64,000 nucleotides of DNA, taken from contig OZ361259.1 in assembly GCA_977018835.1 (NCBI GenBank), forward strand, positions 806,001 to 870,000. Reading direction: 5' to 3'. The position numbers and the translations under genes are program-made. This DNA comes from Minutocellus sp. GHC0000111 (lineage: Eukaryota). The notes below the pieces were generated by a model. That model was not told the origin of the DNA. It made no database searches and saw nothing but the letters and a program-made list of their open reading frames with translations. This document shows positions 3,075-41,319 of the stretch, in pieces (position 1 is the stretch's first letter; each line of letters starts with the position of its first letter).

Positions 3075-3585
3075 CAAGCCAGCGAACCCTGACCTTCAGC
3101 GGCTCACTCATTCTCGGTGCTGCGGCGGCAACGTGGGAAAGGGTGGTGTGTTCCTGCAGCTTTGTGGTTGGGGAGGTGTCGGAGAGTTGTGGACTGGAGC
3201 GATATCTGATACTGACTATATGAATCGGAGTGGAATTCTGAAAGATCAGCAAGAGTTTGTGTCGAAATCCTCTCGCCCCGAAGTTCCATTTGCCAACATT
3301 TTGGACAAAGGATGCCGCTTAGCTCTTGCCGCGCTGAGAGCAGGCAATCAATCGGTGCTTCAGCCATTTTGGAAGCGGAGCGACCGTAAATTTACCTCAA
3401 AGGAGCTGCTGATGTCTGCTGCAGTAGCTGCTGATCGAGCTGCTAATGAAAGGCAGGTCAACCTAGCCAAGAGGTCTGGATTCATTCAGCAAGGAATCAG
3501 AAACCAGCAATCCATGGCTGTGTTTTCTGATGTCTGGCTAGCCTGGAGCTTCCAGACAAACTTTATGTACAAATCAGTGATGTAG
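3075..3585 (+). mobile_element. PIF/Harbinger-like (DDE_Tnp_4) transposase, C-terminal fragment
   Basis: QRLTHSRCCGGNVGKGGVFLQLCGW..ELWTGAISD..NILDKGCR..QP..DRAANER follows the SD / DKGY / R..NER layout of this family. Confidence 0.65.
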
Positions 3586-3888
3586 ATTCATAATATTACA
3601 TAGTTTACTTCTATTTTGATTTGTTTCTATCTCATTTCCATGCGTTGTGCAGCACAAAGTCCTTTTGATCCTTTATCTGCATCATTGACGAAAGACAGAA
3701 AAAGAGGCTCTTTTGATGACGTATTTATGCGTCAGGCAAGGATTTTTTGACCGCCAGCCTCCCATTGCATTTCTGCTCGGTACTCCCTCGACTTGATTTA
3801 CCGCTGCATCCGCGCCCTATGGCTCGAGCAAAATATTTTGATCGAAACAACTGCTATTTTGTAACTTTTACTCCGACCCAACAAATTC

Positions 3889-4998
3889 ATGGAGAAATGG
3901 GGATGTTTCTTCATCGCAATCTATTTTTCTATTTGTGGCAATTTCTTTCTTGCTCACATATTTTATTTGCATAAGGACACACACAAGGGGTCTGAGGGTC
4001 AAGGAAACAACATTTTTTCGTCACCCCACAACAAAAATCCATTGATTAAAGAATATTTACAAAAGTCGAAGCAGAAAGGAAAGTGGCAAAAATGTGCTGA
4101 TTGCCAGGAGGACCAGCCCTGTGACAAAAGTGCGCTTTGGCATGCCAAATGTTTCCCTAAAAAAATAGTTGCCTCCAAAAATGAGACCAAGATCCACGTA
4201 GTTGTGTCACACTGCGTGAATGATTTATCCTGGCTTTCCAAGTTCACCCGAGGATACACAATCAGCAGTATTCATGTGATTAGCAAGTGTGGAAAGTCTG
4301 TGGAGGGTGCGCCAAAAGGTGCTGTCATTCATGACCTTCCCAATGTTGGTCGTAATGACCATTCATATGTTTACTACATCAATAATGTTCTCGAAAAGTG
4401 TGTTGAAAGAAGTGACAGAAAGAGGACGAAAGTATTTTTTCTCAAAGATGACATGAGCAAGGAAAATATGAGTCAAAAAGGTACTTGGAACAGTTTTGAA
4501 ACTATGCTTGGCCTTTCTTCCTCCACCAATGGATTTGCCTGTGGTGTAAGTAAAACTTTGGTTCGAGGAATGAGTTACTCTGCATTCCATGACACAAAAT
4601 CTCTCTTTACCTTTACAATGAAGAAATATGACCGGAACATCAAAGGGTACGCAGAAGATACATCTCCATTTCAATCCAATTTCACAACTTTTGGATCATT
4701 CTTTGAATCTCATTTTCAATTAAATTTGCCTGAGCTAGTTCAAGTATGTTATGGCGGAGTTTTTGCTGCATCATATAGCAATATTGTTCAATTGGATGCA
4801 TCCGCCCTGAAGAAGGTTGAGAAGACTCTGTCTCGAGGAAACAACATACAAGAGGGACACTACATGGAGCGAGCATGGGGACCACTTTTGGCAACGCCAG
4901 ATCTGAAGGCACATCAGATTGAATTCCTGCGAAATCGATCAATAAGGCTTGCTCCTTATTCGTACACGGGTGCTTTAGTAACCAAGATCATTAAGTAG
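3889..4998 (+). CDS. Type II membrane protein, DUF3431-like (putative glycosyltransferase-like)
   Basis: Intact 369-aa ORF with an N-terminal TM segment and motifs VVVSHC..DLSW, LPNVGRNDHSY, YGGVFAAS, GHYMERAWG. Confidence 0.7.
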   Translation: MEKWGCFFIAIYFSICGNFFLAHIFYLHKDTHKGSEGQGNNIFSSPHNKNPLIKEYLQKSKQKGKWQKCADCQEDQPCDKSALWHAKCFPKKIVASKNETKIHVVVSHCVNDLSWLSKFTRGYTISSIHVISKCGKSVEGAPKGAVIHDLPNVGRNDHSYVYYINNVLEKCVERSDRKRTKVFFLKDDMSKENMSQKGTWNSFETMLGLSSSTNGFACGVSKTLVRGMSYSAFHDTKSLFTFTMKKYDRNIKGYAEDTSPFQSNFTTFGSFFESHFQLNLPELVQVCYGGVFAASYSNIVQLDASALKKVEKTLSRGNNIQEGHYMERAWGPLLATPDLKAHQIEFLRNRSIRLAPYSYTGALVTKIIK

Positions 4999-5219
4999 TC
5001 TAATGTAGTACAAACAAACAATGTTGTACTTGGTGGTCACATGGATAAATTGAACTTGTGGGACAGGCTTTGGGTGAACTACTAGATCTAGTGCATCGTA
5101 ACTTGCTTGACCAAGGTTTGATTCTTCGAAAAGCGATTTGCTATGATTGGATGCAGCCTTTTGTAACATGTCTGTATCACATATGTGGGGGGGGTTGGAG
5201 GTGATGTTGAATGAGAGGA

Positions 5220-6375
5220 TGAAGGCCTACGACACCGTCGATCGTGAGCTGCTGTGGAAGATTATGGCAAGGTATGGCTGCCCAGAGGAACTCATCTTCG
5301 TCCTTCGCAAGCTCTACACCAACATCACCGTGCAACTGAAGGGATTTGGGGAGGGATTTACCATACCCTCCACCGTCGGCGTGAAGCAAGGCGACAATCT
5401 AGCACCGGTGCTCGTCATTTTCTTCATCAACGCCGTCGCCGAGTCGATTGAGCCAGAATGGAAGGAGGCCGATATCGATGTCCCTTGGTTGTCTGGCTAC
5501 TTTAGCCATGAGGCAAGGCAGGAGAAGCGTCACGGCCACTCAGCGCTGATTGGAGCGAGGCAGGATGTTTTTTCATTCTTCCTTTCGTACTACGTTGACG
5601 ACGCCGCTTTCATTTTGATGAATCGGGAAGACGCCGTGAAGGCAGCGACGCTGATTGTCCGTCACTTTCGCAAATTTGGCCTTACCATCCATGTTGGCAA
5701 TCGAGTAGAAGGCTCGCCGTCCAAGACGGAAGCACTATACGTGCCGTCAATGTGCCGAGGGATCAAGCGATACGAGGACATCCCAGCTGAAGAGGTCGCC
5801 GACATCGAATTGGTTGGAGAGGATTTCCCGCCCGGTACCTACATGTCGTTCACCCCGACTTTCAAGTACCTTGGCACCATTATATCGTGGGATCTCCGTG
5901 AAGTCAAGGACGTCGAGGCTCGCATCAAATCGGCCAACAAGCTCTTTGAATCGGCCAAGGCCACCTTTTGGTCGAACTCCAGGGTCCCGTTCGAGTTGAG
6001 AATGCGTTTTTACAAGGCCATCGTCGTCAACATACTTCTTTGGGGTTGTGAGAGCTGGGCGATACAGTCGAAAGAGGTTCAAGCACTACTAGTACGAGTC
6101 TTCCAGTTTCGCTGTCTCCGTACTATTCTCAAGATCAACGTAATGCACAAGATCTCGAGGGCTACAATTCTGGAACTGTGCCAGGTTCAAGACATCATCC
6201 AGACCATGGACCTTCGTCGAGCTCGGTGGATCGAGAAATTATCGCACATGGACTTCACTCGGTGCCCTCGCCTTCTCTTCGGCTGCTGGCTATATGGCAG
6301 AGTATACCACCGAGACTCCAAGCCACTCAAGACGATTGGCCAATCCCACACCGACAGCTTGAGACGTATCGGAGA
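5220..6375 (+). mobile_element. Non-LTR retrotransposon reverse transcriptase fragment, 5'-truncated
   Basis: KAYDTVDR, GVKQGDNLAP, YYVDD, FKYLG and LWGCESW motifs in one open frame. Confidence 0.92.
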
Positions 6376-6399
6376 AGCTTCGTTCCTCGAAAGAGGAGT

Positions 6400-7290
6400 A
6401 GCAGCAAAGGCCCCATACATCACGCGACAACGGAATCACAATAGCGGCTGCAATTGAGGCAATACCCACCCAACTGGACGCACTGGACCTGATGGTAGCA
6501 GACCAACACCGCCTGGGCGGAGATGGACTGCAGGACCACCGCCAATTCCTTTTCGATTGGCCACTCGCCAAGCTCCTCGAACGGCCCCCAGCAGACAAGC
6601 GCCAATGGCTCGTGTCGGTTATGATTGCCAGGGAATATGCAGCAAGACAGATGGGAGAATCCAAGACCAAACGAGGAGAACGACGGAACCTGCGACGGTG
6701 GATAATGCTCAAACGACCGTTCCACCAACGTATGTACGAGAAAGTGATGGAAAGATCTCAAGCCCAAATCGAACAGTCGAGACATCTCATGCCATGGCGA
6801 CGACAACGAGATGCGGCAATCACAATCAATCGGCCAACGGGCCGCATCCACCACCTCTCCGATCTCCAAGACCATCCGACGGAAAGCAACTACAATCTCC
6901 ACCCGGCCTGCCCGACTTGCGGCGACAGGGAAGGAGAGCTGCACGAAGCCAGCAACTCCAAACTCTGCCACACCTGCGACACCATCTACCCCCTTCCAAC
7001 ACCGAGACACCAACGACCAATCCGAAACTCACGCAACAACCACCGAAAAAGGAGGAGGCTTCGAGGATCTGACCAGGATCAACCTGCTACAAAGGCGAGG
7101 AAATTACAGCCGAACATCCACCTAACAAATGGATAGACGATACTCTGAGCACCGAGTAGAGTCACCAACCTCTCGCACTGGGGCCGACCCCAGCGACGAG
7201 ACTTGTGTACACCCAAGTGGACCTATGCCACTGGCTCTCTACGCAAGCAAAGCCCGTCAGGGACGACAATATAAGTAAATTAGTAAGGCA
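6400..7290 (+). mobile_element. 3' end of a second non-LTR element, fused to the RT fragment
   Basis: The frame changes near 6380-6420. QHRLGGDGL..QFLFDWPLAKLLE..KRQWLVSV.IAR resembles algal LINE pol C-termini. It ends in GGGACGACA plus an A/T-rich TAAG-like tail at ~7260-7290. Confidence 0.5.
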
Positions 7291-10809: not shown

Positions 10810-12540
10810 TTAACTTGATAGTAATGACTGAAACTTCGATAATTTGACAATGTCACACAAACAGTGCCACCTCACAATCCCACATTTCGTCCAATTTACC
10901 TTTCTGCAGCAGGCTTGGCTCTTGTAGCCAGCCATAGATGCACGATTGGATCCTCCTTCTACCATGCATGACATCATGCGCCCCCCACCACCTGCATCAC
11001 CAGTGCCAGTGCCAGCACCAGCACCAGTGCCAGCATCATCCTGGAGCTTGCGCTTCTTCTTCCTCCCCACGCGCCCGGAGGAGGTTTCGTCCGCGATCTT
11101 GAGAGTCTCCTCCACCAACTTGGCCAGTCCCTTCTCCCAGTGCTCCGCCGCCTCTCGGCTCGTCTCGGCATGATTGCAGCCATCGGTGTACACCGGTAAG
11201 TTCTTCTTGCACTGTGATGAACTCTTGCTGTCATCTTGCGCCGTGCTGGCCCCATCTTCATTTGTCTCATTCTGCGAAACAATGCTAACGACAGTTTCCA
11301 TTCCTCCCTCCTTGGACAATGTGTACTTTCGTCCATTTTCATCATCCGCCTCAATGGAAGAAGCAGCTGATTTGATGGCAACACCATACCACGGTGCAAG
11401 GAGAATAGGGACGGGGCTACTCATAGTGGCCTCAATGTCATTGAGGATGGCCTCATCCACCTGCGGTAGCTCGGTCTTTGCATGTTCGGTGATCTTGGGT
11501 CCAATAGGATCATTGCGGATGGCCTTGTTGAACTCGGCGGTGATGTCTTCGAATCCTTCTCGGGCACAGTAGCACCCGTAATCGCGGCGCCAGCGGACTG
11601 CGATGTCATCGGGGTGAGGCAGACCATTGACGGCCATGACATGTGACGGCAGGGTATACCGTGCCTTTGATAGAAGCAGCAGGAGCAGGTCAAGTGCTCA
11701 CGTTTGAGCTGCACCTTTCGCACCCTCTTGAATTTCGGTGCCGGCAACTTAGAGCACCGATTTTTCTTCGCCGACCCCTCCTTCCTAAGCAGGAACCATG
11801 CACTTTCGTCTTGGCGATGGAGGTTGTATTCATTTCGCTGATGGCACTGCTCCATGACGATGGTCTCGCCGTACGAGGTGATAATTTTGGAGGTAGGGGT
11901 GTTGGACCAAGCAGGAACAGCATCAAGGTCAGTGGCAGCTCGGCGATTCCTCTCGACAGCCTTAATGTCGGCCTGGCTAGAGATGTGGCGATACGAATCG
12001 TCGAGGTTTTGGTTGGGCCGAACCCGGTGGGATTGTTTTTTGTGCGTTTCACTGAGCTGTTCACAGACTCGGCTGGCGACGTAGTCCAGTTCCCAAACGA
12101 TCGAACCTTGGAGGATGTCGATGTCTCCCTTGTCCGTAGGCACCACAATTGGCGGCGTCTTCCACTTGCTGTGCCTTGCTACTGCAGCATCGACTGCGGC
12201 AAGAGGATCGAGGCCATTCGATTGCGTGCTACAATCATTGTCGTGGGCGCAGCACGATCCGGCACAAGATGTGTCATGATGGGCCATCGTTGCAGTGGCG
12301 CTGCTGGGACCGGCGCATGTGTAGCCATGTGCCGGAGCGTGCGGGTAGCAGGGATGCGGATGTGGCTGGGGGGCAGCAGGAGCGGCAGCAGCAGCGCCGG
12401 TGGGCTGGCAAAGTGCGGCTGTGCTGCTCGCACCGACAGCACAGGAGTTTGTGCTGGAGGGGAAGGCCGGGCGAGATTGCGACGATTTCTGCGCCGCCGC
12501 GCCAGGTGGGATGCGGCCGGACCAACGCGCCTGAGACATG
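10810..12540 (-). mobile_element. Mutator-like (MULE) transposase remnant with SWIM zinc finger; internally deleted and frameshifted at ~11640
   Basis: PKFKRVRKV..LTCSCCFYQRHGIPCRH (CxC..CxH SWIM), continuing in another frame as DIAVRWRRDY. Confidence 0.7.
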
Positions 12541-12826
12541 CTGATGGCAGCACAGTGGCGACCTGACGAGCACTAGTTTATTTTATACTCGCCGCCGGCG
12601 CACTAGAGCATGATCGTGCTGTTGGGATGGAGGCAAACACTCTTAGCGATTTTTCGCGGCAATTTCAAAAAAGCAGCCCTCGAGCTTCACGCGCCGGGCA
12701 TGCCAAATCTGAGGCCGGCAGACTTTTCTTCAGTTCCAAACAGGCTCCCCCTCCAATAGCATGATCACCATCCCCCATCGATCGGGCGTATTGCCTTTAC
12801 CGTATGTTGCGGCGGTCGCTCTTGGG

Positions 12827-15110
12827 AAGAAGGCACCAAGGGTGCATTCCCTGGCAGCCTTACCTCTTGGATTCCAGTTTCAGCGAGCAAGTCAAAAACT
12901 CTCTCCACTGTCGTTTTTTGAGCAGAATTTTTGCATGTGCAAAGAAACTTGGTCTCCGGAGGCTCCCATCGGAACGATGTGGACCTCCTCCTCCGTGCCT
13001 CCAACGACAGATCCAGCGCATCTAGCAAACCCGAGGGTGCCTATTGGTAACAGCACCCTCTCCCCAGATGCTCGCCCTTTCTTTGCCCTGAGAGCCAGCG
13101 CCTCCTGTTTTTACCCGCAGAACTCCACCCAGACGCCTGCGCAAAATGCCGAGAAGGACCTCCTCCCTTCCCGGCAGTCAAAGTCATCACACACCTTCAC
13201 TTGCGTCGACCCATGTGCCCAATCGGAACCCGCCACCCACCAGGCCACACGCCGCAAGCCCACCGGCGCACGAGCTTTTCTCCGTTCTGAAAAGATCGAC
13301 ACAATCAATCTGAACGGCATGAAAGTTAGGAAAGGATCATCATCACCATCGTTAGTTACCTCATCATCATCTGAACATTCCACATCGTGCTCGAGCAACT
13401 TTGACCCATCGAACCCGCCGCTAAATGCCCCCGGGCAAGCAGAAGGCAGTGAATGGAAGCTCGATTTTATTGTTGAAACCATGGAGGAGGAGAACACATG
13501 TGCCACCCTCGTCCAAGAAACCTGGAGAACCGGCCCCGAAAGCCCAGAATTCATAAGATCGAAGAACTCAGGCAAATCGTTCCATGTCACATGCAACAGT
13601 GCGTCCGCGGCGACCAATGGCTCCTCCAGAGGGAAAGGTGGCACTGCCATTACCCTGTCCCCCAGAGCACATAAGGACTTCAAACGTGCTGGAGCAAAAG
13701 CAAATTTAGGAGCTGAAGTTGCTGGCTCAGCCCGATTCATCATGCTCAAGATGAAAGATCATGCCGGCGACAGCATGGACGTGGCCCTGTGCTCCGCCTA
13801 TTTCCCTACAGGCGGAAAGCAAGCGGAATTCGACGAGTTTACCCAAGCCCTCTCTGAACATCTAGATTCACTACCAAAATCCGACATCCTTGTCACAGGA
13901 GCTGATGTCAATGCAGCGATCGGAACGAGATCGTCGTGCACAGCGAAACACCTCAAACACCTCAGGAAATGCACAGGGCCCCACGGCCTTGAACGCACAA
14001 ACAACCGCAGTGAATGTGTACTAAATTGGGCCTTCGAGAATAATTTGGCCGCAGCCTCTACTTATTTCAAGCATAAAGATTATGTTACCCATTTCTGTAA
14101 CCTGCAAGCAGATCCCAAATTCCAAAACGACCATTTCTTTGTAAAAAAGCATAATCTCAAAGCTGTCATTGACTCCCGCAAAATCCTTAAGAATTCCCCC
14201 ACCAGCGACCACTTCAAAGTCAGACTTACCATCCGTACCGTAAAAAAGAAAACATCCATGCTGAGAAAGAACCAGAAGAACCGCCGTCGTAAGAACTTCG
14301 TAGCGAAAGAGAACCAACCAGCCCGCCCTGAGAAGAAGAAGAAGCTCAATATCCGAGCCCTTAACAACAAGTCCATCGCTAGAGCATTCTCCGAAGAGCT
14401 CAACAACCGCCTCAAGTCCAGTCACCAAGCAGCTATGCGAGCGCCCCCGTCCACGTCCCCGTCCCCGTCCCAGTCCAGCACCACTGCCCCTCAAGATAAC
14501 CTGCAATCCTTCAAAGCCCTAGCAACCAGCGTTATTACGAACGAAGCAGAGATCGACTACCTAGAATCAGCAATGAAGGAAGCTCTAGAAGCAACAGTAC
14601 CAGAAGCCCCGAAACCGTCCCAGTCCTTCTTCCAAGCACACTCCGAAACACTAATCCCACTTATCAATGCCCAGAAAAAGCCCAGCACTACCAATCCGCA
14701 TCGTCCAAGGAAGCCCGAGCCAATAGATGGAAGAGATATCAAGAAGCAAGAAGTGCGGTGCGATCAGCCCTCGCTTCAGCTCGCGCTAACTGGGCACAAA
14801 CGGAAATTGACAAACTTGAGAATGTGAGCCTCCAGCCTTGGGAGGCCTGGCGAGCTATGATGAGAATCGCTACCGGATGGGAATCCCACCATGAATCAGC
14901 TATGGAAGGCATGTCCCGCACCCTGCCATGCGAGGTTGGCGTCCAACAGGGCGACAACATGGCCCCTCTCCTATTCATTTTCTTCGTAAATGCGTTTGTG
15001 CTGACCCTCGAAAAGGCATGGCCAGTGAGAAAACCATCCTTTCGCGACGGAGCGCCTCTAGGACCCTAGAGATCTTCAGCCCGCCTCCTCACTCAAACGG
15101 CCGATGCAGA
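12827..15110 (+). mobile_element. LINE remnant, copy 1: apurinic-like endonuclease ORF plus an internally deleted RT fragment
   Basis: EN motifs TINLNG, VQETW, SAYFP, GADVNA, DHF, SDH. RT piece GVQQGDNMAPLLFIF at ~14930-15000. Confidence 0.88.
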
Positions 15111-15604
15111 AGAAGGCCAGGACTTTGACCTGTGGAGCCTCGGCAAACCATCAACACAGCCGCCCCGTCTAGTCATCACCCCCGTCTCAACCTCCCTAAT
15201 GTGGAACGGACTGAGTCCGCAACGTCCCCGCAATGACACAACAGTGCCCGTCATCTCCAAGACACATCCAGTCGGAACAGAAACAAGTCTCACACAGCAC
15301 CGTGTCTGAAGCTACGCTGACGGAAGAACACCTTGAAATGTGTGCACAGAACAGTGGTGTGCATGCACATGCGCGTAGTTCGTCCTCCTCAAAAGAATCG
15401 ACCGAGAAAGAGGAGGATCTCTCCTTGGCTCTGACTTGACAGCAATCCACCACGTCGTTGGCGTTGCGACAGGGTCCAGCTCCTTCCACGCAGGTGTTGC
15501 AGTTAGTTGTGGATGGCGACCATCGTTGGGACCACCACCACCACCGTTGCCATTGTTGCCATTGGCACCATCACGATTCTGGTTTCCAGCCTCCAGAGAA
15601 GCAA

Positions 15605-15700
15605 TGGTGGTGGTGTCGTCCCGGTAAACACAGCTTAAATCTGTCTGTCGTAACAAAAAGTTAGAACCAAGTTCGATTTTGAATGGGTAGCCTCATTTGC
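15605..15700 (-). mobile_element. Short retroelement-like 3' end with (ACC)n tail
   Basis: The minus strand reads GGCTACCCATT..GGTTCTA..CAGACAGATTTAAGCTGTGTTTACCGGGACGACACCACCACCA, homologous to 29995-30073. Confidence 0.55.
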
Positions 15701-15756
15701 ATCAGTGAGAACGAATGTCAATGACATAAACTAAAAGTCACAATTATTGTAAACAT

Positions 15757-17105
15757 TGTAGGGCAAGATTGAGTGAGGGTGAGGGGTAAGGACCAGCACA
15801 CGTGTAGACCTACTCGAGGTCACGGTCTCTCCAAGCGTTGGGATTGTTGGCCGGCACAAAGGACCCGCCCTGGTCTGAAATGCGTGCCTTGTTCATCGTC
15901 ATGATCAAGATGCAACTAAAACTAGATAGACCTATCAACTGCTTTTACTTTTACTCTTTCTGCTGAATTACGAAGACAGACTGATGGGTGAAAGATCGCC
16001 CTTAGGCTTGCTTTCACTGTGTTTGGGATCGGTGGTTGCCTGTTGTCACCAAAATGTGACACACATGCAAACTGCGACATGAATCCATGTCGCACAACAC
16101 ACCTAGTTATCTAGCACAAGATCCTAAGGGTCCTGTACTCCAACAGACTGTTCGCCGGCACGAAGCCTTCGAAGGTAGCTGCCAGATTAAGTCTGGCTGA
16201 TTGGCTCCTGGTGTTTCTTCTTGGCACGGGTAGGATGTGCCGCCCAATGCCACACACCAACACAAGCAAGAAGAAGATCTACCACAAACAATCCACTACA
16301 AAGAGACACAACCTAAGATCACACAACAGAAGTCTAGCCCTGGCAAGTTGCATCAACCTAGTGTTCAAAAGAGACCATCCTGCACGGCTTGTCACACTAA
16401 CTCTCTGATGCATTCAACTCTGAATCCGACTGGACACCGTCAGCACTGTCAGCAGTGGCCAATCAACCAGGAAGCAACCATCCTGTCTCTGTGCACCTAC
16501 CCGAACCCAGCACCTTCCATGCAGTGCTGAGACAACCAAGAGAGGCAACACAGGCTTGGTTGAATTCCATTGAAAATCAGAACTCTGAAACCTAACAGAA
16601 ACAAACAACACCTTTCAAACAGAAGACCCCAGACACAATGAATAAGTGACCCCAACCAAGCTCGTCCTAAAAGCCAAGTCCCTAGCCGACAGATCACTTG
16701 ACAAACTCAAGGCTAGAACAGTAGCTAGAGGAGATCTACAGAAAGACAGTGAGTGGCAAGACACATGGAGCGCTTGCATCTTGATGAGAACAGTGAAAAC
16801 GTTCCTAGCCCTGGCCTGTTCCTTCAAGAGAAGAGTGAAACAAGGAGACTTTGTAGGAGCCTACCTGCAAGCCAAGGCCAGAAGGCAAGTTTTTGTAAAA
16901 GATTGGATCAAAGACACAAGGAGCACCGGTGCTTCCCAGACTTATCAAAATGGTTTGAAAGACCTTTACTTCTGAACCGCGGGATTTACGGACTAGCAGC
17001 TAGCGGCAAATTTTGGAATGAGGAGTTCTCAGAATGGCTCAGAGCCGAAGACTTTCATCAATCTACAGCAGACACTACATATTTTGTCAAATGTTACCTG
17101 ACAAC
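15757..17105 (+). mobile_element. Degenerate copia element: probable LTR (~15757-16100) and RT fragment (~16600-17100)
   Basis: TG..CA-bounded segment followed by TAGTTATCTAGCAC (PBS-like). RT motifs LDKLKARTVARGD, QGDFVGAYLQA, IYGLAASGKFW. Confidence 0.75.
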
Positions 17106-17197: not shown

Positions 17198-19925
17198 TTC
17201 ATTTCATCATGTTGCAAAGAGTGAAGGTTCTAATTTTACGTGAGGAATCGCCGAAAGGCGAAACACATACAAAAGAGAAGCGTCAGACGGAAACTGCCAG
17301 GTTTGGGCCAATTTCAGGGCAAATGGTCACCCAGTTTAATTTGCTACCCTCCCACCAATTTTCGTAAGGATTAGGGATCGCCTTGATACTGCTAGTACCG
17401 ATCCTATAGGACTCTAGATAGTCTAGAGCCCCTAATCCTGACCCTCTCTGGCTTTTTATGCCTTCATCAGTGCTAGAATGCTTCACAGGCTCAACGATAC
17501 GTCGGTGCCTATGGAACTTCGATTCAGTTTTTTTTATGACCTTCAGAGAGCTTCCATGGCGACAAGCACCATAGAGTTCGTTCCTCGAGTTGATCGTTTT
17601 CTCCGAAATCGTCTCCGAAAGTTCTAATATAGCTAATCGTTCCTTCATGCACAGCCTGCAGGTCCTCTTCCCAAAAGACTTGGCTGCACTAATACGTTCT
17701 CCCACCCGAATTACTTCATATTCCACCATAGCTCTGACATGGTTTCGATCGATTCCTTTCACACCTAATTCCTTGAAATGCTCCCCAAAATGCTCGGCAA
17801 ACGCAGTACTCTTCTTGTCATTATTGACATACTCTACCACCGAAGCTGCATGTTCTTGCTGCCTAATTTTGCACTGACGAGACGAATTTCCAATGTAGGA
17901 GCAATCACAGATCTTACATGTAGCCTTGTAGACCACCGTAGATTCCCTGCAATCACTTACTTCGCCCTTCGGAGCTCCCTCCTTGTTGCATAGGCCGTGG
18001 AAAGGCTTGGTACAGTTGCATGGTTTTGAGTAGTAGTCTCCACTGACGATGCCGTCCATCACCTTACCGACTAGATCGGCCTGTAGCATCTCCCTAAAAT
18101 TGGAATGTTTCGAGTAGGACATCGATATTCTCAGCCAGCCCAGCCCGTGCTTCTTCTTCAACTTATTCAGCACTGCATGCACCGGCCTCTTCCATCTCCT
18201 GCTGAATTTCATACAGCAATAGACTTGTCCGAGCCTTTTCTTCTTCTTCGTCCTTCCACCGTTATCGGCCTGATTGGTGCCCTCCTCCTCCACTCTAGCC
18301 TTCTTTTCCAAATCCCTAATGCGATCGTCGCAGGCTTCGCCGAGCGTTGGAAATTTGACGGAGTACCCCGCCTGCTCAAACGCCTTGGCGTGCTCGCCAT
18401 GTAGCTCGTCGATCGTCATCGTTTCATTCTCGGGGGTGCGGGTGGTGAGCTTGGCTAGTCGCTGGTTGACCCCGTTGGGGATCGCCATGTAACAAGCCTG
18501 GGGGTGTTCGCTGCCACTGTGGAGGTATTTCAGCTGCTGGTTCTCCTTGAGATGGACCTTGAATTGTAGGTCTTGGTCCTTCCACTGCAGCTCCACATCG
18601 AGGAACGGAAAATTCTCCTCGGCGTGGACAGCAGCATCCTCCATCTTGGTGCCGTCCTCCTTCTCAGCTCCCCCTACTACCGCGGTGAATTGCAATCGGT
18701 CGCTGCCTAGGGCTTTGTTGATTGTTCGCTGGAAGTCGTCTCTCCAACTCTTGACCGCTGTTTTGTCCCAATTACTTCTCACCACCATAATGCCGTCGTC
18801 TCGATACATGCCGAGATAGTCGGCCATGCTGAACAGCCTGGGGTTCAGCTCCTTGGCTCTTTCTAGAGCAAAAGCTGCCACCAGATCAGCAAAGAACGCC
18901 GATCCATGTCCTCCAATCGTTAGCCCTCTTTCCTCACTGTCCAAGTCGCCACCATGTTCACAACATTGTCCCTGAAACGTTAGGAATGTGTTGCTCATTG
19001 CAAATTCCACCAATTTCAGCCCAGCATCAACGATCTTCTGATCCTCCTTCTTAATCTTGCCCTTCCTGCAAAAGTAGGTTACTGCCCTTCTCACATGACG
19101 GATGCATTTTGACAGCATCGAAGGATGTGATCGTCTTCTCGTCCTTCTTAATCGCCATCTTTTCAAGTTACGCCTTCAGGTCTGAGGCCTGAATGACAGT
19201 GTTGGCATCACACACCACTCCAAGTTTATCCAGCACATTTTGGATCGCCTTGTGGCCGATCTTATCATGCACAGCCACGAAAATCGTAGCTGGGCAAATG
19301 AGCCTCACCGGACACATATAATTTTTGTCCTTCTTTTTGTGATCCTTTACCAACAATGTAGGTGTCGGCACAGCGGCCGATTTGATCGATTCATTGATCG
19401 CCGCCCTCTCTTCTGTCGACATCATCTCATCCACCTCCGCTAGCAATTTCTTGGCTTGGAGGAAAACCGCTCCGAGCTTGTCCTTGCCTACCACCACTGC
19501 GTCTTTCTTCAGCTCCTCCATCATGGTTTTGCAGTGCACTTCCAAATCCACAGTGACGTGGAAATTCGTCTTGTCCGTCGGGACCGCCACCAGGTTCCTT
19601 TGCTTCTCCAGTTTTTCCAGTAGATCATTCACTTCGTTGGACTTGCGATTACTGACGGCTTTGCGCTGTCTCTCCTTCTTTTCTTTGCGCCTACTTTCGC
19701 TCGTCGTTGTCGCTTCACCCTTCTTCTTTTTCATGTCCTCCTCCACCATCTTCTTGGCCATCGCGATCAGCGTCCTTTCTACCTCCTGGAGGAACGCTTC
19801 GGTGGCCTTGTCGGCCTTTGGGGCCATTCCATTGTGCTCGTTGGGGCGAACGCCCGAGCCCAGTCCAATGTCCTCCTTCCTCAAATCGTCGTCATCGCCG
19901 AAAAACATCGGGTCGACAACACTCT
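17198..19925 (-). mobile_element. Penelope-like retroelement (RT + GIY-YIG endonuclease); 5'-truncated, stop at 19168-19170 and frameshift at ~19095
   Basis: PTDKTN, LLVKDHKK, SFDAVKMHPS, GLTIGG, YRDDG, FPFLD, CNC..C linker, VVYKATC..YIGNSSR (GIY-YIG), INSRNELYGACRH. Confidence 0.93.
17437..17476 (-). ncRNA. Degenerate hammerhead-ribozyme-like core at the PLE 3' end
   Basis: The minus strand reads CTGATGA-A-GGC-ATAAAAA-GCC-A-GAGA-GGGTC. The paralogous tail at ~26020 has GCCAGAAAG. Stem I pairing is not evident. Confidence 0.4.
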
Positions 19926-26016: not shown

Positions 26017-26269
26017 GAAAAGCCAGAAAGGGGATTAGGGCCTCTAGATTATCTAGAAGCCCATGGGATCGGTGCCAGTGGCATTGAAGAGATCCCTAAT
26101 CCTTGCGAAAATTGGAGGGTAGCAAATTAAACGGGGTGACCATTTGCCCTGAAATTGGCCCAAACCTGGCAGTTTCCGTCTGACGCTTCTCTTTTGTATG
26201 TGTTTCGCCTTTCGGCGATTCCTCACGTAAAATTAGAACGTTCACTCTTTGCAATACGATGAATTGAAT
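26017..26269 (+). mobile_element. Solo Penelope-like 3' terminal fragment
   Basis: Clearly alignable to the reverse complement of 17198-17456. Confidence 0.92.
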
Positions 26270-26901: not shown

Positions 26902-29260
26902 TCATTTTTGCGTCTCGGAAGGAAGAGTTCCATTGAGGCGGATGCATATGCGCCGCTTCCATTCTTTTGTTTCTTTCTCCCAAGTTGACTTCCATTTGTT
27001 TATGCCAAGAATAGGTTTCCCAAGCGCATTGCAAACATTGCGCCACGTTTCCTAGTCCAAATGGGCAGGCTTTGCAGAAATGCAAGCTGCGAGATATTTG
27101 CTCTGAAAAACGCTGATTTTGTCGATTGTGGCCGTTCCCGTGTTCTTTGATAGTGCCATCGACATTGCAACGAGCTTTCCATAGACATTTCTATCCAGCC
27201 ATGACTTCTCATTCAGCTCAAATGCACCAGCAATAATGCCCAGCGGCGGATACAGGGTGTCCTCAGCAAAGCCAAAAACGTCTTGAAACATGTGCCAGGC
27301 ATCATCCTGGTCAGTCATGGTGTCAATGTACAAATGAGAAGAAACAAAGTAAGGCATTCTTGGTTTGCCTCCCTTCTCGTCTCTGGGGGATCTATACCAG
27401 TAATGCGTCACAGTCTCTTGTTGCTTTTCCAACGAAGCGATTGTGCCAGAATCCTCCCAACGGACAATCTTAGGTGACGCGAGACTCATGTTGGAAATCA
27501 TTGATTGAAGATCCCTCTCGAACTCATCTGTATCTACTACATTTCTTCCTGCTTCCAGGAAACACGGCCTACTCAACTTCATCTCATCACCTCCAAGATG
27601 GATAAAGGGACTTGTATGGAATATTTCTTCCAGCTCACCCAATGAAGTTTCAAGGATAGACATTAAGCCTGCGTTTTGATGGTTGAGAGGAATGCCCCAT
27701 GCCTCCTCGCAGAAGTATTTTGGGCAATTTACAATAAGACCAGGGATGCCGGACCACCCCCCTGCATGGCCCGGAATATTTAATTCTGGCATTATGAAAA
27801 CTCTCCTTTCGGTGGCAAACCCGACGAGGTGCTTCATTTCTTCCACGGAATATACACTACCACCTGGAACAGAAGGTACTGCTAGTTCAGGATAGGAATC
27901 AAACTTCAACATGAATGATTGATCATCAGTCAACCTGAGATGTAGCAGATTGAAACCAAGCTTCGCAATGAAGTCAACAATATCCTTCAAGTCTGAAATG
28001 GAAAAATACACACGAGCAGCATCCACAAGTACCCCAGCATATCGAACACGTCGATTATGATGCATTGGCTCCTTCATGTTGCCGATATTGGAGTAACTGT
28101 CTCCCTTGCTACTATTATTCTTTTTGACATCAGAACGATTGCATGGGTAGATATCAGAGTCGGGACATGCATCAAAGCCAAAATAGTCCCAACCATACTT
28201 GTCTTCTCTTTTGCGATCTATTCCAAGCTTCTCTTCATCCATCCACATTCCGCGGTGCGGCTCCAAACATCTTGGCAGGCGCTTGCTGGACTGGGATGGT
28301 TTCCTGACAGTAAGACCTTGCCCTCCGATTGGTTGCATAAGTGTGTGTGCCACAAGATATTGTCTGGTGACAGCCCAGCCTTTCTCATTTGATTTGTCCT
28401 CCATTAGTAGTTTTGATGCAACAACATCAGGACGATCATCATCATCAACGCCACTTTCATATCTTGCCATGAAGTCCAACAGGAATGGTCTAGTCATTAT
28501 CCAACCAGAGGCACCAATACCAGTCCCAACAAAGTACCGCGATTGTGTTTTAGCGATTCTCTCCAACTCGGAGAGTGAAACACAGAGTGTATTATCAGAT
28601 TCCATGTAGAACAAATATTGCGATTGAGTATGATTGGCAACATAATGAAAGATCTGCAGCATTTTGGCCTTGTAGCATCTTATCGAGTAATACTTCACAT
28701 GTAGCACCTCCAATCTTGCGCCCATTGAGGTAGAGCTGCATCTGATTGCTACTTGCAGGAATGGTCTCACCATCCACATTGATGTAATCGAAAATGTACA
28801 TGCCAAATGGAGGATCAATTGCAACCATCCGATTTGCGTCACGCATCATGAATGCAAAGAGATTATTATCTTGTAAGACGTTTTGTTTGCGATGTTCATA
28901 TGTTCTTGTTTCATTTTGAGGAAACCAGAAAGAAGCTGTTACAGAAGCGAGCTTGTTGCTGCTACTGTTGAGAAGATACTACTGTTGAAACAGTATGACG
29001 CTACCACAACACCACCCCAAGTAGTAAAGGCTGCCACAATGATGATGTCATTTATTTTTGTGCAAGTTACTTACATTTGCATCTCTCTGCACGAAGCTGT
29101 TACAGAAGCGAGCTTGTTGCTGCTACTGTTGAGAAGATACTACTGTTGAAACAGTATGACGCTACCACAACACCACCCCAAGTAGTAAAGGCTGCCATAA
29201 TAATGATGTCATTTATTTTTGTGCAAGTTACTTACATTTGCATCTCTCTCTGCATTTCAT
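26902..29260 (-). pseudogene. Glycosyltransferase-like domain fused to a GH20 beta-N-acetylhexosaminidase; disrupted
   Basis: GH20 motifs GVLVDAAR, HLRLTDDQSF, PELNIPGH, IHLGGDE. N-terminal YLFYMESD..GIGASG..LPRC domain. Frameshift at ~28716, premature TAG at 27052 (frame continues to 26902), stops in the 5' part. Confidence 0.8.
28932..29254. repeat. 161-bp tandem duplication in the 5' end of the GT-GH20 gene
   Basis: Units start at 28932 and 29093, with two substitutions and one CT indel. Confidence 0.95.
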
Positions 29261-31429: not shown

Positions 31430-32799
31430 TCCCCTGTGGCCCCTGCTCAGCCGCAGCTCCTCCCCGCCAGGACGAGGAGGCCGACGCGGTCCTGCCTGCG
31501 TCGGCCAAAATGGCCAGCCAACAGCTCCCCGAGTTCTTTTTTCTTTTTTTGACGATGCGGGGTTGAAATTCCCTGCCAGGTACGATTGTCCCTTGCGCAG
31601 GTTGTGGCTTTGACCCAACCACGAGGAGAGCTTTTTCCCGACCATCCCGACCAAATTGGGTTTCTACAAAACAACAAACCCACAATGCAAACAGGAAAAA
31701 AAGAATGCTTTCGAACCATGGTAAGTTGGATGTTGTCTGGAAAGAAAACAGGAGAAAGTCTAAATTTCACAACCAAATCAACAGCCTGAGCATTGAGATG
31801 CACAAAAAATCCCAAGAAGGCACCAAGGGTACATTCCCTGGCAGCCTTACCTCTTGGATTCCAGTTTCAGCGAGCAAGTCAAAAACTCTCTCCACTGTCG
31901 TTTTTTGAGCAGAATTTTTGCATGTGCAAAGAAACTTGGTCTCCGGAGGCTCCCATCGGAACGATGTGGACCTCCTCCTCCGTGCCTCCAACGACAGATC
32001 CAGCGCATCTAGCAAACCCGAGGGTGCCTATTGGTAACAGCACCCTCTCCCCAGATGCTCGCCCTTTCTTTGCCCCGAGAGCCAGCGCCTCCTGTTTTTA
32101 CCCGCAGAACTCCACCCAGACGCCTGCGCAAAATGCCGAGAAGGACCTCCTCCCTTCCCGGCAGTCAAAGTCATCACACACCTTCACTTGCGTCGACCCA
32201 TGTGCCCAATCGGAACCCGCCACCCACCAGGCCACACGCCGCAAGCCCACCGGCGCACGAGCTTTTCTCCGTTCTGAAAAGATCGACACAATCAATCTGA
32301 ACGGCATGAAAGTTAGGAAAGGATCATCATCATCATCACCATCGTTAGTTACCTCATCATCATCTGAACATTCCACATCGTGCTCGAGCAACTTTGACCC
32401 ATCGAACCCGCCGCTAAATGCCCCCGGGCAAGCAGAAGGCAGTGAATGGAAGCTCGATTTTATTGTTGAAACCATGGAGGAGGAGAACACATGTGCCACC
32501 CTCGTCCAAGAAACCTGGAGAACCGGCCCCGAAAGCCCAGAATTCATAAGATCGAAGAACTCAGGCAAATCGTTCCATGTCACATGCAACAGTGCGTCCG
32601 CGGCGACCAATGGCTCCTCCAGAGGGAAAGGTGGCACTGCCATTATCCTGTCCCCCAGAGCACATAAGGACTTCAAACGTGCTGGAGCAAAAGCAAATTT
32701 AGGAGCTGAAGTTGCTGGCTCAGCCCGATTCATCATGCTCAAGATGAAAGATCATGCCGGCGACAGCATGGACGTGGCCCTGTGCTCCGCCTATTTCCC
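31430..32799 (+). mobile_element. LINE remnant, copy 2 (5' region and start of endonuclease), cut bluntly at 32799
   Basis: 31814-32799 is near-identical to 12827-13806. The 5' boundary is uncertain. Confidence 0.88.
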
Positions 32800-35983: not shown

Positions 35984-36940
35984 TTGGTCCAGTGCGCGAC
36001 TTGCCTTCTCTGCTTTTTATCTAGGCAGAAATGGCCTAAGATGCAGCCCCATTTGGAAAGTGTAAATCACATTCTTGATGAGCTTGACGATGATGTCCGG
36101 ACGAAGATGGCAGCAAAACTGGTGATGGAGGCCGGAGTTGTCCCCCACATTATTGTTACCACCATGTTAGACGAGCCTGAGCTTGCTTATGGAGTGGCCA
36201 TACTTGAAATGCATGTGGCGGCCATGAGTCTGAAGAAGATTGGCAGCGGCGTGATGATGAGAGGTGGAAGGAAATGGTGTTTCTAGGTCTGTCAACGTGC
36301 TTCTTCGGCTGGTGCGGCACGCTCTGCTGAGCCACAGCTGCAGCAAGGCTATTTTAATAAGTGGAGCCATGACCAAGCCCTTCAGCACTTGCAGAGAGCA
36401 ATTTATGACTACAAGGACAGCAGCGCCCTTGCCGCTATTTGCACTCGCTTCCGCTCAGGTCGAGCCATTGAGGCAAATGCAAGAAAGGTGCTAAAAAAGG
36501 CGGCAGATTCTCAGACCGGTGAGACTGTTATCAATGGGACATCTATTAGGCAGTCTCAATTTAGAAATTTTATACCCTGAGCAAATGCGGAGGTTGATGA
36601 GGCTCTCAAAATATTGATTCCATCAGAGAATCACAGAAATCTCTTTTGTAATGTGCGCAATCCCAACAAACACTTCTGTGATTTACAAGAATGACAGCGG
36701 CGCAGAGGAAAGACTGTATTTGAAGGATGTTGCTATTTCTTATGATGATCCGGATGCCGGTAAGTGAAATTTCATCATTTATTTTACATTTTGTAAATGA
36801 AGTCTAACAGTGTTTTTCCTTTCTTTCATTTTCATCGCAGAAGCATTCAGCTCTGCCTTGCATCGAGGGACGCCTCCATCGAATCCATTGATTGTTGCAT
36901 TGTAGCCGCTGTCTATTTCTACCAAGTTGAGCTCTAACCT
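35984..36940 (+). pseudogene. Fragmented gene of unknown function with an intron (~36760-36840); copies at ~42150-43105, ~52620-53577 and ~63095-64000
   Basis: Overlapping ORFs 35984-36580 and an AT-rich GTAAGT..TCGCAG intron. Confidence 0.4.
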
Positions 36941-37289
36941 GAACTGGCTGGTCGAATGTTTATTTTCCCTTTGAAGCCTAGTCTAAACGATTTTTGACCA
37001 TGTCATTTTTTTTGTTTTCGTTTCTCGATTTCTTCGGAATAGCAGGCGTGTTAATTAAGGCACAGCAGATAATTAGGACTCGACTCTCTCTCCCTCCCTC
37101 TTAATGCCAAAATTCATTATGAGTGGGGTAGATAGAATCAAACAACTGTTCGGCATGTGCGTTTTGAATTTGTTTCTGCGTTAAGTTTTTATAATGCGAC
37201 TGGCAATCACATGCATCTCTACCTCAATGGGCACTGTGAAGAACACTCTCAATAAAATTCTATGAGGCCAAACTGTTGTGAGGATTTTG

Positions 37290-37800
37290 GACCAGTCATG
37301 AACCAACATGAATCCATCCACTTGTCACCGCCTGCAGTGCCACAAGACATGAGCAGCAAACTCTGAGCACAAGCAGCAGAGCGCACTGGCAGGTGTGATT
37401 CATGCCTTTGTGAGAAACTTGACAAGCAAGCATCAAAATGCTCAGCAGACAGGACAAAGAGTGTCATTTTCATCAGCGCTGCTTTCCAATGATCTAACTA
37501 CAGAATCAGTGCCCAAACTGGCAACAAGTTTGGAAGTCTTCTTTTCTTGATCTGTGATGCCAAGAAAGACAGCACAATTGGATGCTGTGTCAAGAGCTGC
37601 TTTGGCCTTCCTCTTTTTACGACGCTCCTGCCTGCTTCTGTGCAGTTCTTGATGCCTCACTTCACGCTGATGATGAAAGTCACTGTGGTCACAGTCAGTG
37701 CATTGACTCATGGCTTCACCTGTGGTGTTGTTCTCATCTTGTCCTCCTGCAGCAGCAGAGCTTCTAGGGGCTGGCTGTTGCTGAGTGTTGTTTAACAATC
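37290..37800 (-). pseudogene. RING-finger (C3HC4-like) gene remnant; copies at 51758-52264 and 62233-62739 (+)
   Basis: CPVC..CAHRVCCSC in the plus-strand copies; this copy has two extra 2-nt deletions. Confidence 0.55.
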
Positions 37801-38049
37801 AATGAAAGCAGGTGACTGTAGAGGTGCTTCAGGTGCAAAGAGAAGAGAGCACCACTTTCACCTTTGCTGTTTCTGTTTGTCACTCTGCACAGCTCCCTCT
37901 TCTCAACAACTGGACTGCTAGCAAATGAAAGGGCACCATCAATGTTGTCAAGTCCTTTCACATTGTTGCCTGGTTGTGTCATGTGGTTGCCTGCTGCATG
38001 TTCAACAGCATCTTGCGGGAAGGGCAGCAGAGCATGGATGGGGAATAAG

Positions 38050-38403
38050 CAAATTGGATTACAGAAAAATCAATTGTGGAGATTCCAGCAAAACAAGAGA
38101 GTGCATTGAGAAAAGCTTCGAGGGTCTTGCCGTGGAGGTTGTGCGCAGGCTCGGTCGCAAGGTTCGGGAGTGCAAAATTGCCTACCGTGCTCATATTGAA
38201 GAGCAAGAGGAGGAATGAAAGCCCTTGCCCTGAAAAAGATTGAAGGAGTGAAAGAGTCAATCAAGACTAAGAGGCAGTTAGACCAATGCAAGGGCATGCG
38301 CAAGGTGCTCAAGAAGGCCAAGAAGGCTCGAACGAGCAGACAAGCAACAATGAGTTGTGCACAGTTTTCAAAATTACAGGAGAGAATCCTTCAACATGCA
38401 TGA
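38050..38403 (+). mobile_element. Probable DDE transposase C-terminal fragment (copies at ~51153-51506 and ~61628-61981, minus strand)
   Basis: VRRLGRKVRECKIAY..KKIE..IKTKR resembles the R.F.R..R.Y..AY tail of eukaryotic DDE transposases. Confidence 0.35.
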
Positions 38404-39440: not shown

Positions 39441-39768
39441 GCGGCACTTGAAAAAGAGGCGGAACGACGGTGCCCATGGTGGTGGGGAGGAAATGATGCC
39501 GTCAAAAATCGTCAAAAAACGGTCTGTCCGCCGTTAAAGCCGACGCCGAGCTGGGGAGCTTTTTGATTTCTTGTCCGTAGGTACTTAGCAGTACGCAGTA
39601 GTTTTGATTGTAAACACCCAAACGAGCACACTGGATTTCCCCTTTCGGCGAACAAGCAGAATTTGGTCGTTCACCCTTTGCAATACATGCTTTACAGCGA
39701 ATGAATTGAGACAGCAGATGTGCTATCTGAAGACATAAGAAAAGAAGCTCGAACAAAAACCTTGGCTT

Positions 39769-40809
39769 ATGTCATTCATTCCCCCCCAAAAAAGAAACGA
39801 TGTTGGGATTACAATTGCATTCGCTCTTGCCCTTGTGATCAAATTTCGTTTGGGATTGAATTGGCACATGTCACACGTGTACTACTTCACCACCGACAAA
39901 ACTTCTGCAAATCCATCAGAGATGAACGATTCTGCCATTTTAGATGCCCTAGAAAAAAACTCAAAATTAAAACTTTCATTAAAACAACACTCTAAAATCT
40001 TTCGATGTAATGGGGAGGTGGTCAAAGCCTTTTCCAATGACACACATAAGATATGTCCCATCAATCACGGGAGATTCTTTGCTTATGGCTTGACAGAATC
40101 CTTTGCTTTTCGACACGTCTTCAAGAATGGTGGTACCACTGTCGGGAGACAGACCAAACGCCCTCCAGGCAATAGTTCAATGTTTCGAAACTACTCACTT
40201 GTTGCAACTGTCCGGGACCCAATTGATCACTTTTTATCAGGTTGGGCTGAGTGTGGAAAAAGAGGAAGCGAAGAAGCAGCTCACTTTCAGAACGATTTTT
40301 CGACTCTCTCTTACGATGAAAGAATCTTACAGTGGCTGATCGTTGTTAAAGAGAACGAATCTAAATGCAAGTCCAACAAATGTTGTATTCACTCTTACCC
40401 ACAAGTAAACTTCCTATCGGCAAGGAAGTCCAATCTCACTTTCTCACTAGACCCCCGAATCACTGTAATAGGTGACTTGAAAGAGTTACCACACCTTTTG
40501 GAATTTGTTGGATTTGCCTACAACTTATCCATCCCAAGCGGTAGAACAGCAGCTTCGGACCAATTGAAGAACGAAAAATTTCCCAAGCGCCGAAACCTGA
40601 TCTCTAATAGAACGTGTTTGGAGCTTTGCCGTTTTTTGATTCTTGATTACTTTCTTCTTGATTACCCACTTCCCCCAGCATGTGAGGCATTGCAAGAAGT
40701 CACAAGCAAAGAATTCCCCAGTTGTAATCAGAGGAGCTGCCAAAATAAGGCGGTGCACTTTATAAGGCGGAGCTACTTGTCATCCGCCAACCCTGACTGC
40801 AGCCACTAG
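39769..40809 (+). CDS. Carbohydrate sulfotransferase (Sulfotransfer_2-like), copy 1
   Basis: Intact 346-aa ORF with a hydrophobic N-terminus, FRHVFKNGGTT, VRDPIDHFLSGW, HSYPQ, DYFLLDY. Confidence 0.85.
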   Translation: MSFIPPQKRNDVGITIAFALALVIKFRLGLNWHMSHVYYFTTDKTSANPSEMNDSAILDALEKNSKLKLSLKQHSKIFRCNGEVVKAFSNDTHKICPINHGRFFAYGLTESFAFRHVFKNGGTTVGRQTKRPPGNSSMFRNYSLVATVRDPIDHFLSGWAECGKRGSEEAAHFQNDFSTLSYDERILQWLIVVKENESKCKSNKCCIHSYPQVNFLSARKSNLTFSLDPRITVIGDLKELPHLLEFVGFAYNLSIPSGRTAASDQLKNEKFPKRRNLISNRTCLELCRFLILDYFLLDYPLPPACEALQEVTSKEFPSCNQRSCQNKAVHFIRRSYLSSANPDCSH

Positions 40810-40947
40810 GTAATTACTAGTAGAAGCTAGCGCTACCGTCCTTTTTGGCCTTGCCACATGCCAGGCCAGGGGCGGCGCGGGAGCGTTTTCGAACCAGCCT
40901 CATCTTGTGCTGCTCTGCTGCTTGGAGTTCCTCTGTGATGACTTGAC

Positions 40948-41319
40948 TTGTTCGACTCACCGAATCTCAGAGCATGGGAAACACAGAGCCAAGCGAGCAC
41001 GACGACCTGGACGACTTCTTCGCCTCTGACTCATATTATAGAGCGCTCATCGACAGTAAAAGCCGTGACCAAATCACACAAAACAAAAACAGCAGTTTCC
41101 ACCAACGACCGCACGGCTGAACTGGCCAAGCTTCCCACGAAGCGACCGAGACGATCCAACTCCCCCTCGCAGGGCGTTCGGTTGTTGTTCTCCAACGTCG
41201 AAACGCGAGAGTGCGAGCGCATCGTCGGCGATCACGACGATCTGCTCGGCCCACCCCTCGCCATCGGTTGGTTCTTGCATGGTCCCATGGTTGTGCATGC
41301 TTCAATACAAAAGGTTTAA
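40948..41319 (+). pseudogene. Fragment of a stramenopile F..V..R.Y.R.(L/V)GD..GPP..IGW motif protein; copies at 48237-48608 and 58712-59083 (-)
   Basis: FSNVETRECERIVGDHDDLLGPPLAIGW. Confidence 0.5.

Follow-up and report, generated by a model that had tools for sequence, protein, structure and literature searches.

Local two-strand TA to TG/CA excess in the transposon relics of a diatom, likely left by a host mutator

A Penelope-like relic and its lost tyrosines

The window considered here is a stretch of 64,000 nucleotides of eukaryotic DNA from the diatom Minutocellus sp. GHC0000111 (contig OZ361259.1, positions 806,001 to 870,000; GC 47%), in which intact host-like open reading frames (ORFs; astacin, GH20, sulfotransferase, and methyltransferase) alternate with transposon relics. 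Matching DNA is present in sponge and marine metagenomes. In the protein cluster resembling the Harbinger ORF, two members have a known phylum, with Bacillariophyta the most frequent, and the gene content also suits a diatom; the Atlas gave no eukaryote cluster for the methyltransferase. The relic treated first is a Penelope-like element on the minus strand (17286..19923), and others are of Harbinger, copia, and long interspersed nuclear element (LINE) type. These relics carry a local excess of TA to TG/CA substitutions on both strands, which likely comes from a host mutator acting in genome defence, probably a deaminase of the ADAT/TadA kind. A first-pass annotation of the same letters had proposed such a change from His and Cys residues at positions where Tyr was expected. 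All 13 peptide motifs that were searched for lie where it placed them, a 14th (AEH) is present in the RNase H alignment described below, and the His/Cys codons concerned sit one base away from Tyr codons. An altered genetic code was rejected, since Tyr is used normally by host ORFs and by intact relatives.

The Penelope ORF has 24 homologs, and its cluster includes a full-length protein of 994 aa (P0031) that is about 90% identical. Of the 30 Tyr residues in the comparison with P0031, the window copy has lost 12, with His in eight cases and Cys in four, while the 845 other residues show 60 changes (p = 1e-6; 875 residues aligned, nine frameshift residues excluded), the non-Tyr changes having been checked only in part with an outgroup. 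Not one His or Cys of P0031 has become Tyr, which bears out the direction proposed in the annotation. In eight of the changed columns, Tyr is found in 13/13, 15/15, 16/16, 16/18, 13/18, 17/18, 15/18, and 22/22 of those relatives that have a residue at the column. At the nucleotide level, transitions are found at 24/130 detectable TpA sites and at 12/782 of the remaining A/T sites (p = 2e-13). The 24 comprise 14 changes to TG and 10 to CA, so that both strands are affected, as had also been claimed. Every changed A is followed by a pyrimidine on its own strand, with 24 hits among 74 TAY sites and none among 56 TAR sites (Y, pyrimidine; R, purine; p = 3e-7).

The hits are unevenly spread within this one insertion. 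Its 3′ part (17286..18850) is lightly hit, with 7/94 detectable TpA sites and 2/19 Tyr changed, whereas in the 5′ part (18851..19923) the corresponding values are 17/36 and 10/11 (p = 1e-6 for the sites), and the stretch free of RTAY that covers the latter extends to 20595. Non-TA changes are even along the copy (5′ 18/354 and 3′ 29/521, p = 0.88), and a chimeric origin of the gradient was therefore rejected. A second copy of the Penelope tail (26014..26269, plus strand) shows 7 TA to TG/CA changes, rather than the six first counted, among 23 substitutions, together with one in reverse. This tail is hit harder than the body copy and has also lost 4 of 11 TAR sites, so the 3′ pyrimidine is a preference and not a rule.

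Short-read contigs of run X2 (possibly the source data) and of X5 (a separate study) reproduce the letters of the hit regions. Four pieces of X2 contig, which cover 17559-21285 and 24583-26143, depart from the window by 0, 0, 1, and 1 letters, on which ground sequencing or consensus error was rejected. The two differences are TG/CG and CA/CG, neither of them TA, and X5 contigs show none over 18871-19639 and 24891-25727. In short-read contigs, a second genomic Penelope copy has 33 differences over 18867-19178. X2 and X5 contigs also bridge a 1.45-kb deletion in 17411-18871, as in an internally deleted second copy, and another contig joint omits 17915-18118. Contig depth, a poor measure of copy number, is near single-copy over the most-hit 5′ part and higher at the 3′ end. 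The 3′ tail is high-copy, at about 55 times the depth of its flanks (26119-26400, 9652-9721, 41335-41383), and short copies related to it adjoin several genes. RNA contigs of X6 and X9 cover 20956-25174; the Penelope body and the copia relic are uncovered by them, which is no sign of silence.

Penelope copies in metagenomes

The Penelope family was followed further in metagenomes, where a first scan with P0001 as query found nothing and a later one gave 158 loci, of which the best 80 were used; the search patterns contain Tyr, so unhit copies are favoured. Across 15 family-conserved Tyr columns, 17 of these loci have His/Cys in at least two columns and in at least 25%, and 48 have none. The window copy has His/Cys at 8 of the 15, one of them common to P0031. 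Among 35 ORFs flanking the metagenome elements, Pfam shows eukaryote-type genes (COPI-associated, EF-hand, and copia reverse transcriptase (RT)).

Family A was built from 25 copies at least 86% identical to locus L004; three near-duplicates were dropped, and changes in the remaining 22 were scored against the column majority. TA to TG occurs at 240/2061 sites, compared with 69/4646 for AA to AG, 68/3988 for CA to CG, and 81/2916 for GA to GG; the reverse change, TG to TA, amounts to 141/4087, and CpG decay to 80/754. Individual copies range from 0/64 to 51/165 (chi2 199, df 21). The eight most-hit copies have 180 of 413 TA sites altered, 83 to TG and 97 to CA, with a single double change to CG, and in them 61/130 Tyr have become His or Cys, against 11/206 in the other 14. 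Over all copies, both outcomes, TG and CA, occur in different copies at 39 of 74 mutated sites. Changes at TA that alter the amino acid and those that are silent are similarly frequent in the most-hit copies (134/577 and 52/250), which is not so in the others (23/912 and 38/400). The hits in family A are independent, strand-symmetric, and blind to selection. Hit copies are also scattered on a weakly supported tree, on which seven changes are needed, as in 392 of 500 shuffles.

The sequence context agrees with that of the window. Rates in family A are 55/137 for TAT, 78/242 for TAC, 13/92 for TAA, and 43/366 for TAG, which pool to 133/379 for TAY against 56/458 for TAR. In family B (seven copies), the two most-hit copies give 21/71 and 4/81, respectively. 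With regard to the base before A, 189 of 837 TA sites carry a transition, while CA (23/1617) and AA (28/1870) lie at background. Error-prone repair synthesis by a polymerase-eta-like enzyme might be expected to leave such a trace, as polymerase eta has WA (W, A or T) for its mutation target, with a TA hotspot seen on both strands (PMC7884765), but the background level of AA and the rarity of transversions at TA (seven) make this source highly improbable.

Hit and unhit copies of family A run on equal clocks otherwise. Non-TA amino-acid changes stand at 1.21% in the most-hit copies and 1.03% in the others, and CpG decay at 11.1% and 10.3%; no link was seen between TA loss and CpG loss across the copies (rho 0.24, p = 0.29). 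At locus L063, the TA content drops abruptly, 1 kb before the element, from 11-19 to 0-2 per 250 bases, and is restored near 7750. The flanks of hit copies are more fully erased of TA than the element itself (L063 3001-4500 and 6001-7500; L080 3001-4750), as if the element had inserted into an already erased nest.

Other relics and the locality of TA loss

The Harbinger-type (DDE_Tnp_4) transposase fragment (3070..3585, plus strand) was aligned with its homologs. Four of its six conserved Tyr columns, which are Tyr in most of 150 homologs, are His or Cys (3109, 3118, 3121, and 3313), and Tyr is retained at 3217 and 3568. Among 119 homologs with at least three such columns, 93 show no His/Cys there, and the nearest relative (86%) has Tyr at three of the four changed columns. 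A DNA transposon is therefore among the targets, which agrees with the annotation's view that the process acts on DNA and not by RNA editing. Adenosine-to-inosine RNA editing copied back by reverse transcription has in its favour that several targets are retroelements and that ADAR is stated to prefer U before the edited A (10.64898/2026.01.13.699255). It is refuted as the main cause by the Harbinger transposase and by the equal numbers of TG and CA on the coding strand (14:10 in the window copy; 83:97 in family A), as is sequencing or assembly error by the window letters being carried by short-read contigs of two studies, and the two together retain next to no weight.

An RNase H relic (25217..25603, minus strand), also aligned with homologs, is presumably of copia type, to judge from its motifs. 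It differs from an 88% identical relative at 10 positions, four of which are TA-type, and has AEH where 11 of 12 homologs have Tyr (AEY). A truncated LINE RT (5147..6457, plus strand; family alignment) is largely spared and serves as an internal control, with Tyr lost in 1/14 cases and 11/369 non-Tyr differences from the family majority. Sites of the best context have been lost at 2/28 in this LINE against 19/40 in the Penelope copy (p = 4e-4).

Several other relics could be read less fully. The SWIM-finger ORF (11421..12572, minus strand) was labelled MULE in the first reading, and the ORF adjoining it has three residues differing from a 57-aa relative, of which two are TA-type (Y>C and I>V). 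A LINE endonuclease/RT relic (12713..15100, plus strand) is RTAY-free over 12802-14018; its Tyr columns are unpolarised, as only one endonuclease homolog was found, at about 27-28% identity. The stretch 14736..17079, made up of LINE 3′ pieces and a relic of copia RT (RVT_2), contains a single RTAY in 2.3 kb, with CpG low as well at 16001-17000. The longest RTAY-free stretch (36716..38193), a relic with a RING-like motif seen by eye and no Pfam match, is depleted in both TpA and CpG and recurs in the later copies of a large duplication. No relatives turned up for the MULE, copia integrase, and VETRECER pieces: of 20 exact look-ups, four succeeded in the protein collection, two of these giving single-member clusters; viral-contig scans gave 0 loci, PDB 0 matches, and tblastx against the 80 Penelope loci nothing usable.

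Some of the His residues first taken as lost Tyr are shared with relatives. The peptide KIGHKAI is present, yet its His is common to the intact relative P0031; the same holds for VHEDN and THSR, whose His are common to their nearest relatives, and CTGPHG, though present, has its His in the sole homolog found as well and so records no Tyr loss. More generally, His at conserved aromatic positions is common to the nearest relatives P0031, P0114, and P0135 (19243-19263, 25370-25384, and 3106-3123), and position 331 of P0031 is His where 13 of 15 relatives have Tyr. Such His may be old hits fixed in lineages that kept transposing.

Over positions 1-41700, eight RTAY-free gaps of at least 900 bases were counted, compared with a mean of 0.24 and a maximum of 2 in 300 third-order Markov simulations that ignored GC variation. 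Seven of the eight lie over transposon relics and none over an intact host ORF. In 17 non-coding segments next to genes, the segments being selected by eye, TA is retained (rho 0.86; 0.68 without four motif patches), with an RTAY share of 55/229. The motif patches consist of short palindromes (CTAG, GTAC, TACGTA, and AGCT) at 20860-20920, 23530-23625, 31335-31430, and 40805-40840; they are the most TA-rich DNA of the window, directly flank intact ORFs, and are possibly promoter elements. The first of them (20860..20920) precedes an intact ORF; the TA-poor 5′ region of the Penelope copy is 270 bases away, and the patch forms an untouched control. The signature itself can hardly be doubted, and its local targeting, seen in this one 64-kb window and in the sharp edges of L063, is highly likely. 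The simple observed/expected ratio of TpA was discarded as a marker, as host ORFs (0.44-0.59) overlap relics (0.26-0.72).

It could be argued that a genome-wide TpA mutation bias is visible only in old neutral DNA, with selection guarding the genes and copies differing by age. TpA is low across the whole window (0.53), TA loss in family A correlates with other amino-acid changes (rho 0.46), and the lightly hit copies do carry their 38/400 silent TA changes. This reading is nevertheless very unlikely in view of the six-fold difference inside one insertion on an even background, the sparing of a LINE of like divergence, the equal CpG and non-TA clocks of hit and unhit copies, the retention of TA in gene-adjacent non-coding DNA, and the sharp domain edges in L063. 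The mutation spectrum measured in Phaeodactylum is, moreover, biased from GC to AT (PMC6604790).

Duplications within the window bear on whether repetition sets off the process, as the annotation had supposed. The 161-bp tandem duplication (28932..29249, plus strand) has two substitutions, both TA against CA or TG (29037/29198, CA/TA; 29041/29202, TG/TA, letters that were given correctly), which are unpolarised without an outgroup and would both fall at TA by chance with a probability of about 0.03. In the second copy of a LINE 5′ region (31814..32799, plus strand; RTAY-free over 31829-32811), the noted difference GGTGC/GGTAC at 12844/31831 is real, although this GTAC/GTGC change is only one of three substitutions to fall at TA. 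The region 32800-64000 consists of a 9-12 kb unit in about three copies, inverted and then direct, at 99.4-99.96% identity, as would arise from amplification in the very recent past or from an error of assembly. Only 4 TA occur in 47041-47340, as had been counted. No TA to TG/CA change occurs among the substitutions of the 9-12 kb duplication or of a 264-bp tandem repeat in an intact ORF, both of which are very young.

A targeting of reversed polarity resembling repeat-induced point mutation (RIP), triggered by pairing of duplicated sequences, would account for the prevalence of transposon relics among the targets (7/8 long gaps) and for the TA differences between short duplications. Other observations run the other way. 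Depth, a poor gauge of copy number, is close to single-copy over the Penelope part with most hits and points to more copies at the less-hit 3′ end; the deserts of L063 reach past the element; and the 264-bp repeat and the 9-12 kb duplication lack such changes, though they are too young to be decisive. The target reported in the chlorarachniophyte Bigelowiella natans is single copy (10.64898/2026.01.13.699255). Repetition as a trigger is not borne out, and a RIP-like targeting appears quite unlikely.

Some further features of the window were recorded. The 264-bp array comprises three tandem units (21232-22027) in an intact ORF with RNA-contig cover; its contig depth is 2-3 times that of the flanks, and it may be longer or variable. 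A short interstitial telomere-like (CCCTAA)n run at 22997-23012 adjoins a multi-copy small element, and a hairpin-like element lies in the spacer of the 9-12 kb unit (47408-47585). The ORF at 843-2018 has a cytochrome-P450-like haem motif, seen by eye and without a Pfam match, then Ser/Gly/Lys repeats of 30 bp and a tail of Pro/Ser. A GDP-mannose dehydratase/epimerase-like gene is present as pieces on both sides of GH20 (26360-26725 and 29349-29582), as if it had been split.

Candidate chemistry and relation to known mutators

The nearly pure transitions, the strict 5′ T, the 3′ pyrimidine preference, the outcomes on either strand, and the rarity of double CG changes fit a self-erasing single-base lesion that is fixed at replication, for which the deamination of A to inosine is suggested as the simplest chemistry. 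Briefly, an ADAT/TadA-like deaminase would convert the A of T-A-pyrimidine to inosine in silenced DNA, and replication would read inosine as G, giving one daughter with TG, or CA on the opposite strand. A changed site would no longer be a target, and hits would accrue one by one over many generations after insertion, on targets marked by chromatin state in kilobase domains and not by the pairing of copies. The effect would be to kill relics by missense (Tyr to His/Cys; Ile to Thr, Met, or Val) with their frames left open, since TA to TG/CA makes no stop from a sense codon. Such a deaminase is, in our judgement, the probable mechanism.

The same local process might instead start from a modified base. 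This would be either N6-methyladenine (6mA), then deaminated or else misread, or a thymine oxidised within R-T-A and pairing with G. The sequence cannot name the base, since A to G in TAY and T to C in RTA are one event, and CpG is also lost in some relics (16001-17000 and 37001-38000), which points to marked chromatin. ApT is the context of 6mA; in hit copies, those ApT sites that lack a 5′ T show no increase (29/895, against 36/1338 in others), which speaks against a 6mA origin of the ApT type. TA loss does not track CpG loss either, whether across copies (see above) or across window bins (rho 0.08). An origin in a modified base is considered unlikely.

Several points weigh against the deaminase account and the data behind it. 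The lesion on A and that on the paired T look alike in sequence; CpA is not raised, a stricter choice than the YAY (pyrimidine on both sides) of the editor ABE7.10; and strand clustering of hits is absent (87 of 180 neighbours, against a shuffle mean of 92.5), which is unlike a processive single-strand deaminase. The changes in the window Penelope copy were read off the P0031 protein and not off DNA, each difference being taken as the simplest one-base change; the eight most-hit copies of family A were picked after the count; and the host of families A and B is placed as a eukaryote and no further. The weak correlation of TA loss with non-TA amino-acid changes (p = 0.03) indicates that age accounts for part of the loss. 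RTAY shares are similar in 14 transposon-like regions (74/406) and nine host ORFs (103/468), and the next two RTAY-free gaps (864 and 795 bases) lie in the astacin gene, where Tyr is intact, so composition alone is weak evidence. In addition, the signal is lacking from those Penelope clusters that lie on megabase contigs in another assembly (Tyr 7/535, with eight reverse changes), and clusters 8-10 have 0/736 Tyr changed; such clusters favour young intact copies.

The process had been thought undescribed, which is wrong: the identical substitution is described by Mettrop et al. (10.64898/2026.01.13.699255), who suggest ADAT. In mutation-accumulation lines of B. natans, 231 of 302 mutations fell in two integrated viral regions, almost all of them A to G or T to C at TpA and confined to a subset of lines, in some of which the rate was raised about 1000-fold. 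The targets were integrated DNA of nucleocytoplasmic large DNA viruses and virophages, the larger region being the single-copy one, and TpA-poor genes were enriched in DDE and RT domains. Both cases share TpA to TpG/CpA on both strands, nearly pure transitions, confinement to foreign or selfish DNA, and unevenness between lines or copies. They differ in that a diatom is concerned here, with Penelope, Harbinger, and copia relics as targets and polarised alignments, in patches of about 1-5 kb instead of 25-186 kb, and with a preferred 3′ pyrimidine, the main text of the preprint mentioning neither trinucleotides nor diatoms. The process in the window is a variant of that of B. natans, with another lineage, targets, motif, and patch size, and it is not RIP. 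Literature searches, with most subscription papers outside reach, gave no report of TA-erasing hypermutation in diatoms.

RIP of ascomycete fungi involves the pairing of duplications, premeiotic timing, and the RID methyltransferase. Like the process described here, it is a host-side, context-specific hypermutation of both DNA strands that ruins transposon copies; unlike it, RIP makes TpA and stop codons, whereas here TpA is destroyed, frames stay open, and A:T pairs are changed. Its substitution is C to T (10.64898/2026.01.13.699255), and a change of that type at CpA/TpG with gain of TpA and of stops is not what the two comparisons show (no His/Cys to Tyr in the window copy; TG to TA 141/4087 against TA to TG 240/2061 in family A). 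Decay of 5-methylcytosine at CpG also yields TG and CA and co-occurs in family A, but its starting point is CG, it is unable to remove Tyr codons, and TA loss does not go along with it. The earlier statement that the process is neither RIP nor CpG decay thus stands, by its opposite polarity and by the lack of a link to CpG loss.

TadA, ADAT2-3, and TadA-derived editors also convert A to G where pyrimidines stand on both sides; ABE7.10 favours YAY (PMC10188366), and the 5′ pyrimidine preference is inherited from TadA (10.64898/2026.07.20.739671). Here only T is accepted before A, and the process is natural and genomic, without targeting by Cas9. As a tentative extension, which we hold to be possible and somewhat less than an even prospect, diatoms may have a natural deaminase of DNA adenine that strictly requires T-A-pyrimidine and surveys silenced domains of kilobase size at any copy number, a RIP counterpart of reverse polarity shared with Rhizaria and perhaps ancestral to SAR (stramenopiles, alveolates, and Rhizaria), with stray hits sometimes fixed in live transposon lineages.

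If the proposed account is true, a preprint result from one species would be extended to a second algal lineage, ordinary transposons of both class I and class II would be shown to be among its targets, and the mutator would be narrowed to an assayable motif of three bases. An enzyme that makes A-to-G changes in genomic DNA by nature would be the long-sought counterpart of the engineered adenine base editors and of AID/APOBEC. In such genomes, relics with long open frames and lost Tyr mislead gene callers, the dating of transposons, and work on base composition.

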